Below, in pieces: positions 9,750 to 61,973 of a stretch of 64,000 bases of DNA (the stretch's first letter is position 1; every line of letters begins with the position of its first letter). The stretch comes from Octopus sinensis (Eukaryota), in contig NC_043017.1 of the NCBI RefSeq assembly GCF_006345805.1, positions 21,700,001-21,764,000 of the forward strand, read 5' to 3'. Under the pieces are notes generated by a model. The model was not told the DNA's origin. It made no database searches and was given only the letters and a program-made list of their open reading frames with translations. Position numbers and translations under genes: made by a program.

Positions 9750-9817
9750 TGCGTCGGCCGGGAGTCGAACCCAGATCAACTGCATGGAAGGCAACCATGC
9801 TAACCGTTACACACACC
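9750..9817 (-). pseudogene. tRNA-Gly(TCC) pseudogene / SINE head
   Basis: Minus strand GGTGTGTGTAACGGTTAGCATGGTTGCCTTCCATGCAGTTGATCTGGGTTCGACTCCCGGCCGACGCA matches metazoan tRNA-Gly(TCC) as I recall it. The first ~5 nt of the acceptor stem are replaced by (TA)n; a T6 tract follows 9 nt downstream (9735-9740). Confidence 0.85.
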
Positions 9818-9892
9818 TATATATATATATACATAATATATATAATATGTATATATATATATATATATACATACATATATATATTATATATA

Positions 9893-11284: not shown

Positions 11285-11600
11285 ATATGGTGGTTGTCTA
11301 CTCCTTATGCAAAGTTTGACCACCTCCTGTATGGCATCTGATGTGACTTTTTAAACCAGACAATGTTCTGAAAAGACACACCCATAGATTGCATATTCGA
11401 TATGGACCACCAAGAGTTGCAGATAAGTTCTCATTTTTGTAGATCTTAAAATGTCTTTTGAGTTCTCCGTTAGATTTGCAAACCTTCTGGCATGCATTGC
11501 ACTGAAAGGTGTGCACAAACATATAGGCAGAATAGTTGGTGGAGGTTCGTTTTCCATGGGTGTGCAAATGAGATTTGAGCCCTGCAAAAATAAAGGCATG
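11285..11600 (-). pseudogene. Degenerate C2H2 zinc-finger fragment, probably the 3' end of a LINE ORF
   Basis: FQCNACQKVCKSNGELKRHF and CNLWVCLFRTLSGLKSHIRCH, plus AGLKSHLHTH; no splice or start context, and GLKSH-type fingers are typical of some RTE-clade C-termini. Confidence 0.55.
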
Positions 11601-11630
11601 GTCTATCACAAATTGTGCATATATATATGA

Positions 11631-12110
11631 GATAGTATGTTGTCAACTTAATGTGATTGTCCCATGAAAGGGAAGAATGCTACCATTATTTAGCCCTAGG
11701 ACACACCGTTTCCTGTCGAACTTGACACATTTCCTGTGTCTTTATGTTTTCAAAGTGGAGACAAGCATCTCCACCCAGCAAAGCCAGCATCCAGAGACTA
11801 GTTTCAGGGTCATTGCTCATCATCAGTCTGGAGTAGCATGGCTTGCTAGCTGTCGATGCCTATCTGCCTCTGAAAACATATATATTTCAAGTGAAATATA
11901 TTCATCGATTTTTTTGAAAATAGAAATAATACATTGTAACATAAGTATACGGTAAATGTGTCAAGTCCAACAGGAAACGGTGTTTCCTAGGGCTAAATAA
12001 CAGTATCATTCTTCCCTTTCATGGGACTGTCATATAAGTTGACAACATACTATCAACTTTATCATGCTGCTACTGCATAAATCTCTCTGAGAGATTTAGA
12101 AATGTATTAT
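11631..12110 (-). mobile_element. Fold-back element with long inverted arms and central hammerhead, copy 1
   Basis: Arms gatagtatgttgtcaactta...ttgacacattt (11631-11732) pair with aaatgtgtcaag...taagttgacaacatactatc (11954-12054); homologous to 60472-60826. Confidence 0.85.
11790..11832 (-). ncRNA. Minimal hammerhead motif (canonical core)
   Basis: Minus strand TCCAGA CTGATGA tgagcaatgaccct GAAA CTAG TC TCTGGA. Confidence 0.65.
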
Positions 12111-12375
12111 TCATATATATATATATAAAATTTATATGGCTGACAGTTTACAATGTTTTACCAAAAAGGAAAACTATTATTGTCACTAAATATGCCAAGG
12201 GTGTTAGACACACCTACATTGCTAGAAATAAGAGCTGAAATGCTCTAATGCTGTAGTCAAAGCACATATTTGCACACTGACAGCAATTATAATCATCCAA
12301 CAACATCATTTGAGAATTCCATACACTGACATCAGATCGGCAATTTTCATATATATATATTAATACTCATAAATA

Positions 12376-15465: not shown

Positions 15466-16015
15466 AATTTGGACATTTTTATTCATGGTGGTTGAACACA
15501 CCATTTTATGCTCCGGGGGCAAGTGTAACAAATTTTAAGCTGCAGCTATGGTAACAAGAGACAAACCCAAAATACAGACGAATGTAAAATACTGTCACTG
15601 CAAGTTAAAAATTGACCGAAGACAGGTCACTATCATAGATGTCAATATATATAAATAACAGGGTTAAAAATCTGCTGAAATTACAGTATACATTTAATGT
15701 ACATCATATATATGTATGCAATTTATGGTTGTAAAAGTACACAGTAAGTGAGAAAGAAAAAAAAAGAGAAAAACATCGTGCTGTATGCAACTGAATAACA
15801 AAGAAAAGCAAGTTATACAATATTTGCTAATTCTAAAATCTGTTGGCAGTAAAATTCACAAGGTTTTTTTTTTTCTTTTTGATACGCATACACTGCTGAA
15901 AGTAAATGAGATCTGCATGGTTTTTCACCTCCTCTCTCGCTCTCACTCCCTCATGCACACACACACACACACACACACACATGCACGCACACACATTCAT
16001 ACAGTTTTTTTCTCA

Positions 16016-17095
16016 AGCTGGCAGAATTGATAGAAAATTGTAAAATGTGCTGTATATTAATTTTTTCTGGCTCTTTATATTCTGAGCTCAAATCCTACAG
16101 GTGTCTTTCATCCCACAAGGGGCAATAAAATGAGCTATTTTAACTTTTTCTGGCTCTATATTCTGAGCTCAAATCCTGCTGGTGACTTTTAACCCTTTAA
16201 GGGGCAATAAAATGAGCCATATTAATTTTTTCTGGCTCTTTATATTCTGAGCTCAAATTCTGCTGGTATCTTTCATCCCACAAGGGGCAATAAAATGAGC
16301 TATATTAATTTTTTCTGGCTCTTTATATTCTGAGCTCAAATCCTGCTGGTGTCGTTCATCCCTTAAGGGGCAATAAAATGAGCCATATTAATTTTTTCTG
16401 GCTCTTTATATTCTGAGCTCAAATTCTGCTGGTATCTTTCATCCCACAAGGGGCAATAAAATGAGCTATATTAATTTTTTCTGGCTCTTTATATTCTGAG
16501 CTCAAATCCTGCTGGTGTCGTTCATCCCTTAAGGGGCAATAAAATGAGCCATATTAATTTTTTCTGGCTCTTTATATTCTGAGTTCAAATCCTGCTGGTG
16601 TCTTTCATCCCTTAAGGGGCAATAAAATGAGCTATATTAATTTTTTCTGGCTCTATATTCTGAGTTCAAATCCTGCTGGTGTCTTTCATCCCTCAAGGGG
16701 CAATAAAATGAGCTATATTAATTTTTTCTGGCACTATATTCTGAGTTCAAATCCTGCTGGTGTCTTTCATCCCTTAAGGGGCAATAAAATGAGCTATATT
16801 AATTTTTTCTGGCACTATATTCTGAGTTCAAATCCTGCTGGTGTCTTTCATCCCTTAAGGGGCAATAAAATGAGCTATATTAATTTTTTCTGGCACTATA
16901 TTCTAAGTTCAAATCCTGCTGGTGTCTTTCATCCCTTAAGGGGCAATAAAATGAGCTATATTAATTTTTTCTGGCTCTATATTCTGAGTTCAAATCCTGC
17001 TGGTGTCTTTCATCCCTTAAGGGGCAATAAAATGAGCTTGATGTAAATGATTTCCCGTCTAAACTTCTGGCTTTGTGCTTAAATCAGAAACAATT
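16016..17095 (+). repeat. 12-unit 81-83 bp tandem array amplified inside a family B SINE
   Basis: caataaaatgag recurs at 16123, 16205, 16288, 16371, 16454, 16537, 16620, 16701, 16782, 16863, 16944 and 17025; the SINE head agctggcagaat precedes the array and the SINE tail ctggctttgtgcttaaatcagaaacaatt follows it. Confidence 0.95.
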
Positions 17096-17171
17096 GTCAG
17101 AAGTTTATCATTATGAAGGAGGCTGAAATTCTGAACTTTTGAAGAAATGAAAAAGGGGATTTCTAGATCTA

Positions 17172-20151: not shown

Positions 20152-20367
20152 ATACATTACCTGAAGTGTACAGCATTATATGTCCATTACTGCAGATCTT
20201 CCTAATTGGTTTCCGACCAGGGATTCCATATCGGCTACCTCTGATGAGTACAAGGTTACATAATTGGATTGTTACCTAACGCTCTGTTGAATCCCTGGCA
20301 CAAAACCAATTGGTGAGTTCGGCCAACCGTACTGTATATATAATACTGTACACTTCAGATAATATAT
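20152..20367 (+). mobile_element. TIR-bounded element with a degenerate internal hammerhead core
   Basis: 30-bp inverted ends (20152-20181 / 20338-20367, 3 C/T mismatches); CTGATGA at 20241, decayed stem II gtacaagg/cctggcac, then aaaa-ccaattgg. Confidence 0.65.
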
Positions 20368-34489: not shown

Positions 34490-34998
34490 ATCACTCATCA
34501 TTATCATTGTTTGACCGTGGTCGAGACAATGGAATTTACCATGCTACGCCAGACTTCACGGTCCATCATGGCATTACGGAGGTCCTGTTGCTGGATGCCT
34601 GTATCCCTGGGGATTACATCAGGGTAGGTGACTGTGCGCCCTCTGGTATTGCAAGTAGATGGCTTCCAGAGGAGAAGAGTAGAAATTGCCTCGTTTTCAG
34701 CTCTACAACAATGTCCAGAAAATTGGACTCTCCTACCTTTCACAAGAGATAGTACAGGTGGTAGTTTCCCATATATTTGCATTTTGGTTGGATGGCGCTT
34801 CCACGAGAGATTTTGAGCTCTCATAAGGAGGCGAGTGTAGGTTCCATCCAATCGCCTCTCAAGCTTCTTTGATAACGTCCAGGTTTCTGAGCCATATAGT
34901 AGAATTGGTTCGACTGTGGTTTTGAAGATTTCAAGTTTGAAGTCTCTACTTAGATTTGATGACCAGATCTTATGCATGTCATTACAGGCTGACCAGGC
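34490..34998 (-). pseudogene. 5'-truncated RTE-type LINE, ORF2 C-terminus
   Basis: 157-aa ORF with PILLYGSETWTLSKKLERRLDGTYTRLLMRAQNLSW and GHCCR..LLLWKP..MMDREVWR motifs; the stop is followed by a (TGA)-like tail. Confidence 0.9.
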
Positions 34999-44580: not shown

Positions 44581-44858
44581 GGGACATATGGCATAGTGGT
44601 TAAGAGTGCGGACTACTAACCCCAAGATTCCGAGTTCGATTCCAGGTAGTGACCTGAATAATAATAATGATGATAATAATAATAATAATAGTAATAATGA
44701 TAATAATAACAACAACATCGCCCCAAGACACCTGATGAAGGCTGGAATGTATATCAGATGAAACATTGGGTTAACAACAAACAAGATGAAGACAAATATC
44801 TGTCAAATGAAAATAATGTAAATATGGTACATAATTCCTCATTTCTTAAATATAGAAC
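44581..44858 (+). mobile_element. tRNA(Ser-like)-headed SINE with (AAT)n and hammerhead tail, copy 2
   Basis: Homologous to 2617-2985; HHR at 44727-44772 reads gacac CTGATGA a ggctg..cagat GAAA ca tt gggtt. Confidence 0.85.
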
Positions 44859-48835: not shown

Positions 48836-48875
<40 letters not shown>

Positions 48876-48972
48876 TCAATATAGGGTGGCAAAAAAATTT
48901 TGTAGAATTTTTTTGCCACCAGCGGCCTAGTGGGAAAAAATTAAATAGTCATAGACCATTTTTAAGTTCAAC

Positions 48973-49103
48973 ATCACAATCAAGGAACGGCCATAATAGG
49001 CCATTCACCCACTAGAAATAACAGCCAAAAGCTTCAACCGCGGTTGAAGCCTTTGGCTGTTATTTCTAGTGGGTGAATGGCCTATTATGGCCGTTCCTTG
49101 ATT

Positions 49104-49108
<5 letters not shown>
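48973..49108. repeat. 136-bp spacerless palindrome (one mismatch)
   Basis: 68-bp arms centred on caaccg|cggttg (49040/49041); the only mismatch is 49030 A vs 49051 C. Confidence 0.97.
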
Positions 49109-49259: not shown

Positions 49260-49952
49260 ATGTATGTATGTATGTATACACACACACACACACACACATA
49301 TATATAGGTGTGTGTGTATCTATACACAGGCATCTACATGCATTTATATGTGAGAGAGAGAAATAATGGTGGATATTTCTGTAGATTATATATATAATTT
49401 TCTCTGGCTATGTCTATAAATGAAGTATATGTGCGTATGTGTATATATACACACACACACACACACACATTCAGACAGGCGTTCACAAGAGGTTGGCTGG
49501 CAATACATAATTAGTCTTTCGTTATCTTTTTTTTTGGTTAGTTACATCGCATTTTACCTTTAATAATACATCACAATATATTTTTATGTTGTGTTTTCTT
49601 TTGATATTTACTCAGTTTTTCATTTTTTGCTTTTGTTTATAGCCAATATTTTTTTTTTGTCCTCAGCCTTTACAGAACATTTCCATACATTTTATAGTAT
49701 CACGTTATGTTATTTTTCGTGTAACTTCAATAGTACACTATGTTCCACTGGTTAAGATAATTAGTAATATTTTTTCCTATTGTTTTCCCTGATTATATTT
49801 ATTTGTCCGTTTTTCTCTGTTCTAATTTGGTCATTTTCTTTATATATATATATATATTATATATATATATATATACACGTACATACATATATGCAGAGAT
49901 ATAGACATGAATACATGCATAACATACATATATACATACACACACACATATC

Positions 49953-49995
<43 letters not shown>

Positions 49996-50590
49996 ATGTA
50001 TGTATGTATGTATACACACACACACACACACACATATATATAGGTGTGTGTGTATCTATACACAGGCATCTACATGCATTTATATGTGAGAGAGAGAAAT
50101 AATGGTGGATATTTCTGTAGATTATATATATAATTTTCTCTGGCTATGTCTATAAATGAAGTATATGTGCGTATGTGTATATATATACACACACACACAC
50201 ACATTCAGACAGGCGTTCACAAGAGGTTGGCTGGCAATACATAATTAGTCTTTCGTTATCTTTTTTTTTTTGTTAGTTACATCGCATTTTACCTTTAATA
50301 ATACATCACAATTTTTTTTTATGTTGTGTTTTCTTTTGATATTTACTCAGTTTTTCATTTTTTGCTTTTGTTTATAGCCAATATTTTTTTTTTGTCCTCA
50401 GCCTTTACAGAACATTTCCATACATTTTATAGTATCACGTTATGTTATTTTTCGTGTAACTTCAATAGTACACTATGTTCCACTGGTTAAGATAATTAGT
50501 AATATTTTTTCCTATTGTTTTCCCTGATTATATTTATTTGTCCGTTTTTCTCTGTTCTAATTTGGTCATTTTCTTTATATATATATATAT
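49110..50590. repeat. Near-identical ~736-bp tandem duplication bounded by (TA)n
   Basis: acgtacatac at 49141 and 49877; tcattttctt at 49831 and 50566; differences are mostly homopolymer or microsatellite lengths. Confidence 0.95.
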
Positions 50591-58113: not shown

Positions 58114-58350
58114 ATGTATACATATATATAAGCATGTCTTTGTATGTGTGAATCTTCGTGCTTGTGTCTGTCTCTTGATAACTGGTGGTGGTTTGTTTAT
58201 ATCCCAATAAATTAGTGTTTCAGCTAAAGAGACTGAGACTCGAAAATAAAATAAGTACCGGGGCGGGGGTCAGTTCGTTCAACTAAAACCATTCCAGACA
58301 GTGCTCCAGCATGGCTGCACTGAATGACTGGAAGAGATGAGAGATAAAGA
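57471..58350 (+). mobile_element. Family A SINE with three tandem heads
   Basis: The head unit (..ctgtg..taag..gggttca.tcccac..aaact..agaagcc) starts at ~57471, ~57640 and ~57808; a single tail lies at 58150-58350. Confidence 0.8.
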
Positions 58351-58980
58351 TAAATAGAGACATGAGTATTTCTTCATTTGATGTCTCCAAAGACAAGATG
58401 TCAGTTGAATTAGAAAAACATTTTGGTTTCTATTTAAGAATGTCTGAGATTTTGGAATAAAATTGTCCTAGTACATGATGAATATCTTAGTATATACACA
58501 AACATACATGTGTATGTGTGTGTATGTGTGTGTGTGTGTTGTGTGTGTGTGTATGTATACATATATATAAGCATGTCTTTGTATGTGTGAATCTTCGTGC
58601 TTGTGTCTGTCTCTTGATAACTGGTGGTGGTTTGTTTATATCCCAATAAATTAGTGTTTCAGCTAAAGAGACTGAGACTCGAAAATAAAATAAGTACCGG
58701 GGCGGGGGTCAGTTCGTTCAACTAAAACCATTCCAGACAGTGCTCCAGCATGGCTGCACTGAATGACTGGAAGAGATGAGAGATAAAGATAAATAGAGAC
58801 ATGAGTATTTCTTCATTTGATGTCTCCAAAGACAAGATGTCAGTTGAATTAGAAAAACATTTTGGTTTCTATTAAGAATGTCTGAGATTTTGGAATAAAA
58901 TTGTCCTAGTACATGATGAATATCTTAGTATATACACAAACATACATGTGTATGTGTGTGTATGTGTGTGTGTGTGTGTG
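58090..58980. repeat. Near-identical ~439-bp tandem duplication bounded by (GT)n
   Basis: agcatgtctttg at 58131 and 58570; one 1-nt indel in the unique part. Confidence 0.95.

Positions 58981-60415: not shown

Positions 60416-60420
<5 letters not shown>
60163..60420 (+). mobile_element. Family C element 3' end
   Basis: gtgccggtggcacataaaaagcacc..gaagggcatccagcc..ctaaacgatgatgat. Confidence 0.9.
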
Positions 60421-60468
<48 letters not shown>

Positions 60469-60471
60469 AGT

Positions 60472-60826
60472 ATTACATTTCTAAATATCTCAGGGAGATA
60501 TAAACAGCAGTGGTATGATAGAGTCAACTTAATGTGACAGTCCCATAAAGGGAATCAAACTACTGCTATTTAACCCTAGGAAGCATTAATGCTTCCTGTC
60601 AGTCTTGACACATTTCCTGTGTCCTTATGTTTACAAGGCCTAGACAAGCATCTCCAACTACCAGGCCATGCTACTCCAGACTGATGACAAGCAAGACTCA
60701 GAAACTAGTCTCTGGATGTAGGCTTAGCTGGGTGGGGGTGCTTGTCTCCCCCTTGTAAACATAAGGACACAGGAAATGTGTCAAGGCTGACAGGAAGCGT
60801 TGATGCTTCCTAGGGCTAAATAGCAT
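60472..60826 (+). mobile_element. Fold-back element with central hammerhead, copy 2
   Basis: Arms 60565-60667 / 60721-60825; 60675-60716 reads TCCAGA CTGATGA caagcaagactca GAAA CTAG TC TCTGGA. Confidence 0.85.
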
Positions 60827-61145
60827 TATGCACCACTTCCTTCATATCTTCATCTGTAGGCAATCGACGAACTTGTAAACCATTTTTGAGCAGTTTAAAG
60901 ATATGATAGTTGGAAGGGGTAGGATCTGGGCTGTAGGTAGGGTTTACCAGCACCTCAAAACCCAATTGGTCAATAGTTTCAATGGTCTGGATGACCGTAT
61001 GGGGCGTGCAATGTTATGCAACAACAAAACTTTCTTTGACAATAGGCTTCAGCATTTGGTGTAAATTGCTAGCTTCAGTTTGTTTGCCAGCAAAACACTA
61101 TATCTTTCACTGTTAAGCATAGACCCCTTTTCCAGAGAAATCAGA
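60826..61145 (-). pseudogene. Mariner transposase fragment
   Basis: LISLEKGSMLNSERYSVLL..KKVLLLHNIARP / PHTVIQTIETIDQLGFEVLVNPTYSPDPTPSNYHIFKLLKNGLQVRRLPTDEDMKEVVH: degenerate HDNARPH and YSPDLAPSDY motifs, with a stop and a frameshift. Confidence 0.9.
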
Positions 61146-61973
61146 CTCCTGCTCTTTGTTCTTCTTTGGTGCACATTGCTAGTGGAGCAGCCCTGCTTAC
61201 ACTGTAAAGCCAGAAATAAAAATGGTGTGATCAGGCTCATACTTTGATCACATGACCACAATAATATTAACTATGAGCATGCATCTTCAGAAAGCAGTGT
61301 GACAATAATGAAGATATGTTATGACAAAAGTACGGATAATTTTTGACTTCCTCTCGTATATTGAGTTCTAACACTCAGTTATTTGTAAGGCAAACCTTAA
61401 GCAAAGTAATATAGACAAACAGATAGCCTGACAGACAAATAGATATTAACATATGTATGCTTAAAATGAAGAAACTTCTAATGACATACGCATGTAGCAA
61501 TCTGTATTTTATATATATCATAATCCCTGAATACATAGAGAAATAAATAAGTGAAAAATTACAATCACTTCCCACTAAAACCCTCCCCTTATATACGCCA
61601 TTCAAACAAAAATCACAAATACCAACAGTTTTTCTATGATTATTTCTGAGCTGAGTTTAAAGTAGCTGATCATTTTCTTTGCTACATTTTAGAAAGGCAA
61701 GTGTAACAATACAAAATATTAAAACAAATAATAATAATAATAATAATATAATAATAATAATATAATAATAATAATAATAATGATAATAATAATAATAATA
61801 GAATATTCAATTTTTTTTTAATGCTGCTATCTGCCATTCCAATAGCAGCTAAAATCATGGTACTTCTGGATAAATGTTTACAGAAGAAATAATAATCTCA
61901 ATATCTGTATGAGCGATCAAAGGACAACACATATAGATTTAAAGAAAGAGAAAACAAGAAAAGATAATGTAGA

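Follow-up and report, generated by a model that had tools for sequence, protein, structure and literature searches.

Two hammerhead-tipped fold-backs in the genome of Octopus sinensis are probably Penelope-type insertions

Two fold-back insertions, each bearing a type I hammerhead motif at the tip of an inner hairpin, were found in the window (the whole 64,000-nt stretch of Octopus sinensis DNA that was analysed), and for both the probable source is a Penelope-type element (PLE) whose reverse transcriptase and GIY-YIG endonuclease acted on a short hammerhead-bearing RNA. The features of PLE insertions found here were: i) an inverted, 5'-truncated copy in head-to-head orientation; ii) a tail at one end; iii) an AT-rich or (TA)n target; iv) a sense hammerhead near the 3' end. 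What was observed directly is a fold-back built in two layers, a tail at one end only, flanking TA sequence and an inner hairpin whose pairing favours the ribozyme strand; the assignment to PLEs comes from two copies, whose 54-nt tail exceeds the published 30-40. Among the alternatives raised in an earlier note on this DNA, an inverted-pLTR derivative gave the best fit, and spread via RNA is likely.

The window is repeat-rich animal DNA (about 35% GC) with microsatellites, SINE-like repeats of families that look octopus-like, a LINE fragment and a mariner remnant, and no copy beyond these two was found in its 64 kb by BLAST or with a two-copy nhmmer profile. The hammerhead pattern hit 0 loci in prokaryotic genome contigs; a 20-mer of the arm hit 1 locus in prokaryotic and mobile collections, as a match of 20-22 nt alone where about 1.1 were expected by chance, and plasmid and phage collections gave no match. 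Other repeats of the window included tandem arrays of 81-83 nt (15995-17119, copies up to 99% identical), a degenerate inverted repeat (20152-20367; 79 nt at 75% identity, 63-nt gap), a LINE ORF fragment from downstream of the RT domain (34507-34998, minus; 243 relatives at E 1e-20 or better, some with PF00078) and near-identical local duplications (49299-49840 / 50035-50575 and 58151-58508 / 58590-58946), possibly tandem duplications or assembly artefacts. A tRNA-Gly called by ARAGORN and Rfam (9751-9821, minus) may be a SINE head, and beside copy 1 lies a decayed C2H2 zinc-finger frame (11301-11642, minus), which is below Pfam cut-offs and possibly a LINE 3' remnant.

Over their main block the two copies were alike at 166 of 199 nt, and the arms of copy 1 (11631-11748 vs 11938-12054) matched over 118 nt at 87% (BLAST). 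The fold-backs reached -201.7 and -242.2 kcal/mol (z -19.8 and -19.9), each value being matched by 0 of 100 shuffles. The earlier note had described arms of about 100 bp enclosing a hammerhead; the arms are real, but the hammerhead caps an inner, imperfect 138-nt hairpin, a 57-nt segment lies between this hairpin and the outer arm in copy 1, and the geometry is asymmetric, with ~54 nt of tail outside the inverted repeat and arms that end at differing points in each copy (Table 1). Indels specific to copy 1 were present in its outer left arm. Neither insertion contains an RT or GIY-YIG ORF, and on the ribozyme strand no ORF of at least 25 codons is common to both copies besides short arm-derived frames. 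The anole PLE has an ORF that starts at the ribozyme; a conserved counterpart was considered here and rejected, the 45-codon frame of copy 1 being missing in copy 2. At the foot of the copy 1 hairpin (11864-11890, minus) a TA-rich box and a pyrimidine-CAG motif, weaker in copy 2, look by eye only like pLTR promoter or splice-acceptor features.

Table 1. Parts of the two insertions (window positions; the strand is that of the hammerhead)
Feature	Positions	Strand	Remarks
Copy 1, whole insertion	11629..12111	-	TA repeats at either side
Copy 1, one-sided tail	12058..12111	-	54 nt; 9-bp hairpin near 12078-12099; homologous to copy 2 60469-60522
Copy 1, outer left arm	11938..12057	-	read as inverted 5'-truncated copy of the unit's 3' part
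Copy 1, middle segment	11881..11937	-	57 nt; missing from copy 2
Copy 1, inner hairpin (extended helix I)	11743..11880	-	138 nt
Copy 1, type I hammerhead	11790..11832	-	predicted cut after 11796
Copy 1, downstream (forward) outer arm	11629..11742	-	without tail
Copy 2, whole insertion	60469..60826	+	
Copy 2, one-sided tail	60469..60522	+	adjoins (TA)25 run at 60418-60468
Copy 2, outer left arm	60523..60625	+	~60561-60625 pairs with right arm, 64/68 columns
Copy 2, inner hairpin	60626..60763	+	138 nt; gapless junction to outer arms
Copy 2, type I hammerhead	60675..60716	+	predicted cut after 60710
Copy 2, outer right arm	60764..60826	+	~53 nt shorter than in copy 1; abuts cut mariner remnant

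Both hammerheads contain the core boxes CUGANGA and GAAA, with GUC as the NUH cleavage triplet. A type I descriptor (helix I of at least 4 Watson-Crick pairs, both core boxes and NUH, with helix II optional) found 3 sites on both strands of the 64 kb: the two copies, with 6 pairs in helix I and a palindromic helix III, and a third site, at 2887, with 4 pairs in helix I. Under dinucleotide shuffling (n = 200) sites with at least 6 pairs in helix I came to a mean of 0.005 per window; no shuffled site had a palindromic helix III. The motif thus exceeds chance in both copies, and the claim that each combines a hammerhead core with a fold-back was upheld. Moreover, two stretches were identical across copies, one of 23 nt that stops at A9 and one of 18 nt that starts with G12, which together take in the core and helices I and III; an unconserved core, combined with the termini and target-site duplications of a cut-and-paste transposon, was what the earlier note had named as speaking against its reading. 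A repeat pair with a tRNA-like head and an (AAT)n run (2617-2980 and 44582-44834) carries a minimal PLE-type hammerhead-like motif, with boxes at 2887 and 44732 and apparent CpG decay; no literature linking PLE, SINE, hammerhead, tRNA-derived and non-autonomous all together was found.

In the open-ended helix I all 6 pairs form (probabilities 0.65-1.0), and the helix extends to 43 pairs retained in both copies, in a structure derived from these same sequences. Two of the 43 were altered on both sides and 6 on one side; the covariation shuffle control (138/500) is uninformative at two sequences. Helix III consists of 2 bp and a 2-nt loop, that is, a 6-nt palindrome with a self-duplex energy of -4.8 kcal/mol and a monomer pairing probability of 0. 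Helix II forms 2 of 4 pairs in each natural copy (U-U/G-C/A-C/G-C in copy 1 and C-A/A-C/A-U/G-C in copy 2), with a monomer pairing probability of at most 0.02. Combining the two decayed halves as the earlier note had proposed did give 4/4 pairs, while the opposite cross gave 1/4. The hybrid stem is not the sole reading, since the helix II bases of copies 1 and 2 match published PLE ones: the majority of Hydra PLEs have U-U there, and one PLE has C-A (supplement of PMC8557442). If basal U-U (copy 1) and C-A (copy 2) were original, a 3-bp stem with one A-C mismatch per copy would remain, and natural hammerheads with a 1-2-bp stem II and with U10.1-U11.1 or U-U starts have been described (PMC3088659). 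Counted by eye, 5 changes would be needed for CpG decay of a C-G-closed stem, 4 for the hybrid and 1 per copy for an original basal mismatch.

The Rfam hammerhead models, whose coverage of PLE-type variants may be incomplete, gave no match, whether the gathering score or an E value of up to 10 was applied, and only weak unrelated matches were found. The word "canonical" used in the earlier note therefore holds for the core boxes and for helices I and III, but not for helix II, which pairs 2/4 in each copy, and it found no echo in Rfam. An antisense CUGANGA box was absent from both copies. With one hammerhead per insertion, and with two of the four helix II pairs formed in either copy, cleavage by a lone copy is doubtful; single, helix-II-mismatched copies are probably weak or inactive, as judged from monomer pairing models, which leave tertiary contacts out of account. 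The bulge beside helix I may correspond, like the purine-A end of loop II, to positions through which the schistosome ribozyme makes its tertiary contacts. The metazoan type I motif, with helices of 6, 4 and 1-2 bp and a palindromic loop, is described as active as a dimer (PMC4209133), and so is the type I motif of ASBVd (PMC6155905). In source copies the hammerhead would probably process tandem precursors in this dimeric form.

The fold-back proved to consist of two layers. Zoning was based on an alignment of all four arms, with 68 outer columns common to both copies and 49 inner columns. In the outer zone, which includes a 3-nt indel mirrored in both copy 1 arms, 7 of 68 columns were split by copy and 0 by arm; in the inner zone the split followed the arm in 7 of 49 and the copy in 1 (Fisher test, p 0.0014 by column and 0.015 by event). 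Outer identity was 64/68 and 55/65 within copies and 52-54/68 across copies, the within-copy value of copy 1 (85%) being modestly above the cross-copy 76-79%. Inner identity was 39/47 between right arms and 35/49 between left arms, and 30/49 and 32/49 within copies. Because inner columns split by arm and outer columns by copy, the inner 138-nt hairpin was already imperfect when the copies inherited it; the outer arms appear younger than the split between the copies and to have been duplicated per insertion or sub-lineage. Homogenisation of the outer arms by DNA-level conversion could be an alternative.

The inner hairpin was biased toward the ribozyme strand: read on that strand, its mismatches were G-U rather than A-C at 12:1 (10:1 excluding shared sites, p 0.012), with the alignment ambiguous near the helix I bulge. 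Outer mismatches (7:6) had no such bias, and the difference between the zones was not significant (p 0.078). The inner consensus folded at -55.2 on the ribozyme strand vs -29.2 on the other; by copy, the asymmetry was strong in copy 1 (-64.7 vs -46.3) and small in copy 2 (-61.4 vs -58.7). The outer duplex of copy 2 also favoured the ribozyme strand (-113.6 vs -105.0). An A-to-I footprint on the arms, for which the earlier note had suggested looking, was sought in the sequence changes and rejected: A>G made up 1 of the 16 polarisable changes in the outer zone and 3 of the 14 in the inner zone, where C>T numbered 4.

These patterns bear on the proposal that the whole fold-back is a replicated rod RNA, viroid- or retrozyme-like, whose arms are kept paired by selection at the RNA level and which is reinserted whole. 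A transcript of either copy would indeed fold as a very stable rod, pairing selection would also yield changes mirrored in both arms of one copy, and the outer mismatches of copy 2 are 3 G-U to 1 A-C. However, inherited arm-specific differences, 7/49 in the inner zone, are 0/68 in the outer one, the outer G-U:A-C ratio and the single A>G of 16 lean against it, and each insertion has a single hammerhead, with a dimer-requiring helix III and no antisense core box. The junction differs between copies by 57 nt, and a rod would override the fold that a single arm with its tail makes by itself in copy 2 (z -4.5; weaker in the copy 1 equivalent, z -1.9), a folding that is similar in both polarities. 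We therefore judge the rod replicon suggested in the earlier note very unlikely. A read-through transcript would form a long duplex as a by-product, and the long rod itself appears to be a by-product of insertion. Viroid-like hammerhead rod RNAs such as ASBVd resemble the element in their rod fold, in their type I hammerhead and in the instability of its helix III, whereas the element consists of genomic insertions with one hammerhead in one polarity.

Both copies start at the same point against TA repeats, and ~54 nt there have no partner at the other end of the insertion, so the element has no terminal inverted repeats. TA repeats adjoin 3 of the 4 ends, which is weak evidence, since TA runs are common in this window. 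The far end of copy 1 also lies against TA repeats; target-site duplications (TSDs) are not callable in such low-complexity flanks, where a possible TA-rich duplication of ~11 nt was seen. No TSD was found in the flanks of copy 2. Its far end interrupts a remnant of a mariner transposase, which matches SETMAR at E 6e-12, and may be a deletion breakpoint; the shorter arm of copy 2 is thus no evidence of variable truncation. The checks of folding, termini and TSDs proposed in the earlier note hence gave very stable rods, but neither terminal inverted repeats nor a clean TSD in the TA sequence. The mariner remnant itself (60827-61370, minus) is internally deleted, with SETMAR and Mos1 matches and just one end inside the window; it was rejected as a partner of the element, this sole detected end being unrelated to the arms. 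An origin as a Helitron or Helentron was also rejected, the tail hairpin being AT-rich and lacking the CTRR end by which such elements are recognised.

The same termini decide about a DNA origin. A non-autonomous foldback or MITE of Mutator/Foldback-like type, with long terminal inverted repeats and a TA target, might have captured a hammerhead-bearing PLE end and had its arms homogenised by conversion. The long inverted arms would suit it, as would the ~11-nt duplication around copy 1, and a TA-targeting Mutator-like family is described in plants (PMC4486113). MITEs and Foldback/Mutator elements are likewise short and non-coding, with an AT-rich target. The element differs from them in that its termini are not inverted repeats, ~54 nt lying outside the repeat on one side in both copies; in its unpaired arm inheritance; and in its conserved ribozyme core, identical with helices I and III although the copies are ~83% alike. 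The inner hairpin, moreover, is biased to the ribozyme strand, and conversion would be expected to even out the loop-proximal part first, yet it is there that asymmetry stays. Reading the element as a MITE accordingly fails, and we give this explanation very little weight.

The middle segment of copy 1 bears on the template. Two nt into this 57-nt segment, 11935-11925 duplicates, in element sense, the last 11 nt of the tail (12101-12111). The 11-mer occurs at just these two places in the window; when the segment was shuffled, it turned up in 4 of 5000 trials, and one or another 11-mer from the remaining element in 8 of 1000, the match having been spotted post hoc. It suggests that the forward unit of copy 1 begins with the tail's last 11 nt, as would be expected of a ~350-nt ORF-less tandem or circular template; the length (296 + 54) applies only if the match marks a unit junction. 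The natural 307-nt stretch had a fold z of -4.8. The segment also has a small hairpin near 11880-11901 and a 6-nt direct repeat on its flanks, and, given this repeat and the post hoc nature of the match, a repair insertion is a possible origin of the 57 nt. A DIRS-like internal complementary region was rejected, the 11-nt match having no partner for the other terminus and being absent from copy 2.

Such a repair origin would fit a sequence of events in which an ordinary PLE or retrozyme monomer was inserted first and the inverted arm was added later in each copy, via DNA-level fold-back or template-switch duplication seeded by the 138-nt quasi-palindrome. That would account for the copy-specific mirroring and for junctions at the hairpin base, and the 6-nt direct repeat flanking the segment is as in repair insertions. 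Yet two independent rearrangements would be needed, with loss of the forward-copy tail twice, and the inverted copy ends at the identical tail terminus against TA in both. Moreover, a third fold-back, of an unrelated family, has the same plan: 48871-49108 contains a 136-nt palindrome (134/136 self-complementary) with a one-sided extension of ~100 nt, lies between TA runs, lacks a hammerhead box in both orientations and looks young; its likeness to copies 1 and 2 is one of sequence layout. A later duplication thus stands a slight chance at best.

Published PLEs offer a closer comparison for the preferred reading as PLE insertions. PLE insertions are described with an inverted 5'-truncated copy, partial tandems, a tail of 30-40 bp at one end and microsatellite targets (PMC8557442); according to its supplement, octopus Hydra and Naiad PLEs prefer (TA)n, and Hydra-clade hammerheads are in sense, about 100-240 nt from the 3' end and mostly with U-U at the helix II base, and this clade prefers (TA)n as well. 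Here the predicted cut lies 167 nt before the arm end, as measured on the forward arm of copy 1, and about 220 nt before the tail end. PLEs are reported to make up 6.83% of Octopus vulgaris (PMC13282606). The EN+ PLEs (Hydra, Penelope/Poseidon and Neptune clades), as described in PMC8557442 and PMC3846280, share with the element the head-to-head inverted truncated copy, the one-sided tail and (TA)n, a junction palindrome, a sense type I hammerhead near the 3' end and a helix II base of U-U or C-A; unlike them, the element has no ORF or RT, and its tail measures 54 nt. Its junction palindrome is the ribozyme's own extended helix I, at 138 nt, whereas those given for rotifer PLEs are 18-38 bp (PMC3846280). 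No PLE ORF or partner pLTR was found, and short motifs of the element had no match among the octopus Hydra and Naiad consensus sequences compared in the supplement of Craig 2021 (PMC8557442).

Metazoan non-LTR retrozymes, as published in PMC7229834 and bioRxiv 10.64898/2026.07.22.740005, resemble the element in being non-coding, with a type I hammerhead that has a 6-bp helix I and a short palindromic helix III, with self-paired RNA, in their proposed PLE dependence and possibly in unit size, the inferred ~350 nt falling inside their 170-400-nt range and inside the 150-450 nt taken as criterion for such units. They are described as tandem or monomer units, probably moved by PLEs, and no inverted arm with tail appears in these published descriptions as compared; on the other side, the element has no tandem array or second hammerhead within the 64-kb window.

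The template RNA of the PLE insertions would run, in ribozyme sense, from an AT-rich leader through the 138-nt hairpin with the type I hammerhead at its tip to an arm of ~115 nt and a tail of ~54 nt. It may well have been a ~350-nt ORF-less tandem or circular unit, a reading that we place a little short of even; that it was the truncated 3' end (pLTR) of an autonomous PLE is somewhat less likely. By analogy with published PLE work, the enzyme would cut both strands of an AT-rich target, and two cDNAs would be primed from two start sites, at the tail end and at the arm end. In vitro, extension of both strands and two RT start sites bounding the tail have been reported for a PLE, the hammerhead being dispensable for insertion (PMC11167929). 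The tail-primed cDNA would halt near the hairpin base and give the inverted arm, while the other would traverse the ribozyme. We infer that the cDNA ends would then meet via the long helix I, as they can because its two strands are complementary; copy 2 would be the seamless outcome, a MITE-like fold-back with the hammerhead at the tip, and copy 1 an outcome in which a short spacer remained. Palindromes at head-to-head inverted PLE junctions have been attributed to self-priming on the antisense template (PMC3846280), and by analogy this is a possible junction mechanism here too.

Joining the tandem or circular template to this step yields a bolder reading, which we regard as rather unlikely and put forward tentatively: a ~350-nt protein-free element of retrozyme type whose genomic copies bear the full PLE insertion signature, with helix I as a built-in annealing patch for two target-primed cDNAs, so that an RNA element has turned MITE mimic. 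No description of a hammerhead-tipped MITE-like PLE derivative was found in the literature by title or abstract start; Repbase, Dfam or the Octopus repeat library may already contain the family. Should it be no more than a truncated pLTR, the element would be one ordinary case of an architecture already known. If the joint reading is true, the structure of the element would directly show retrozyme RNA being mobilised by PLE enzymes, a step so far proposed or inferred from phylogeny. Both the origin of PLE inverted repeats with a one-sided tail and the enzyme that moves animal retrozymes are stated to be open in the literature, and a short family whose junctions gather at a ribozyme hairpin that is conserved would let the PLE reaction be studied in many natural replicates and would supply the published in vitro assay with a small substrate. 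Repeat annotation would then class this RNA element as a DNA transposon, and some "MITEs" of TA-rich animal genomes may derive from RNA.
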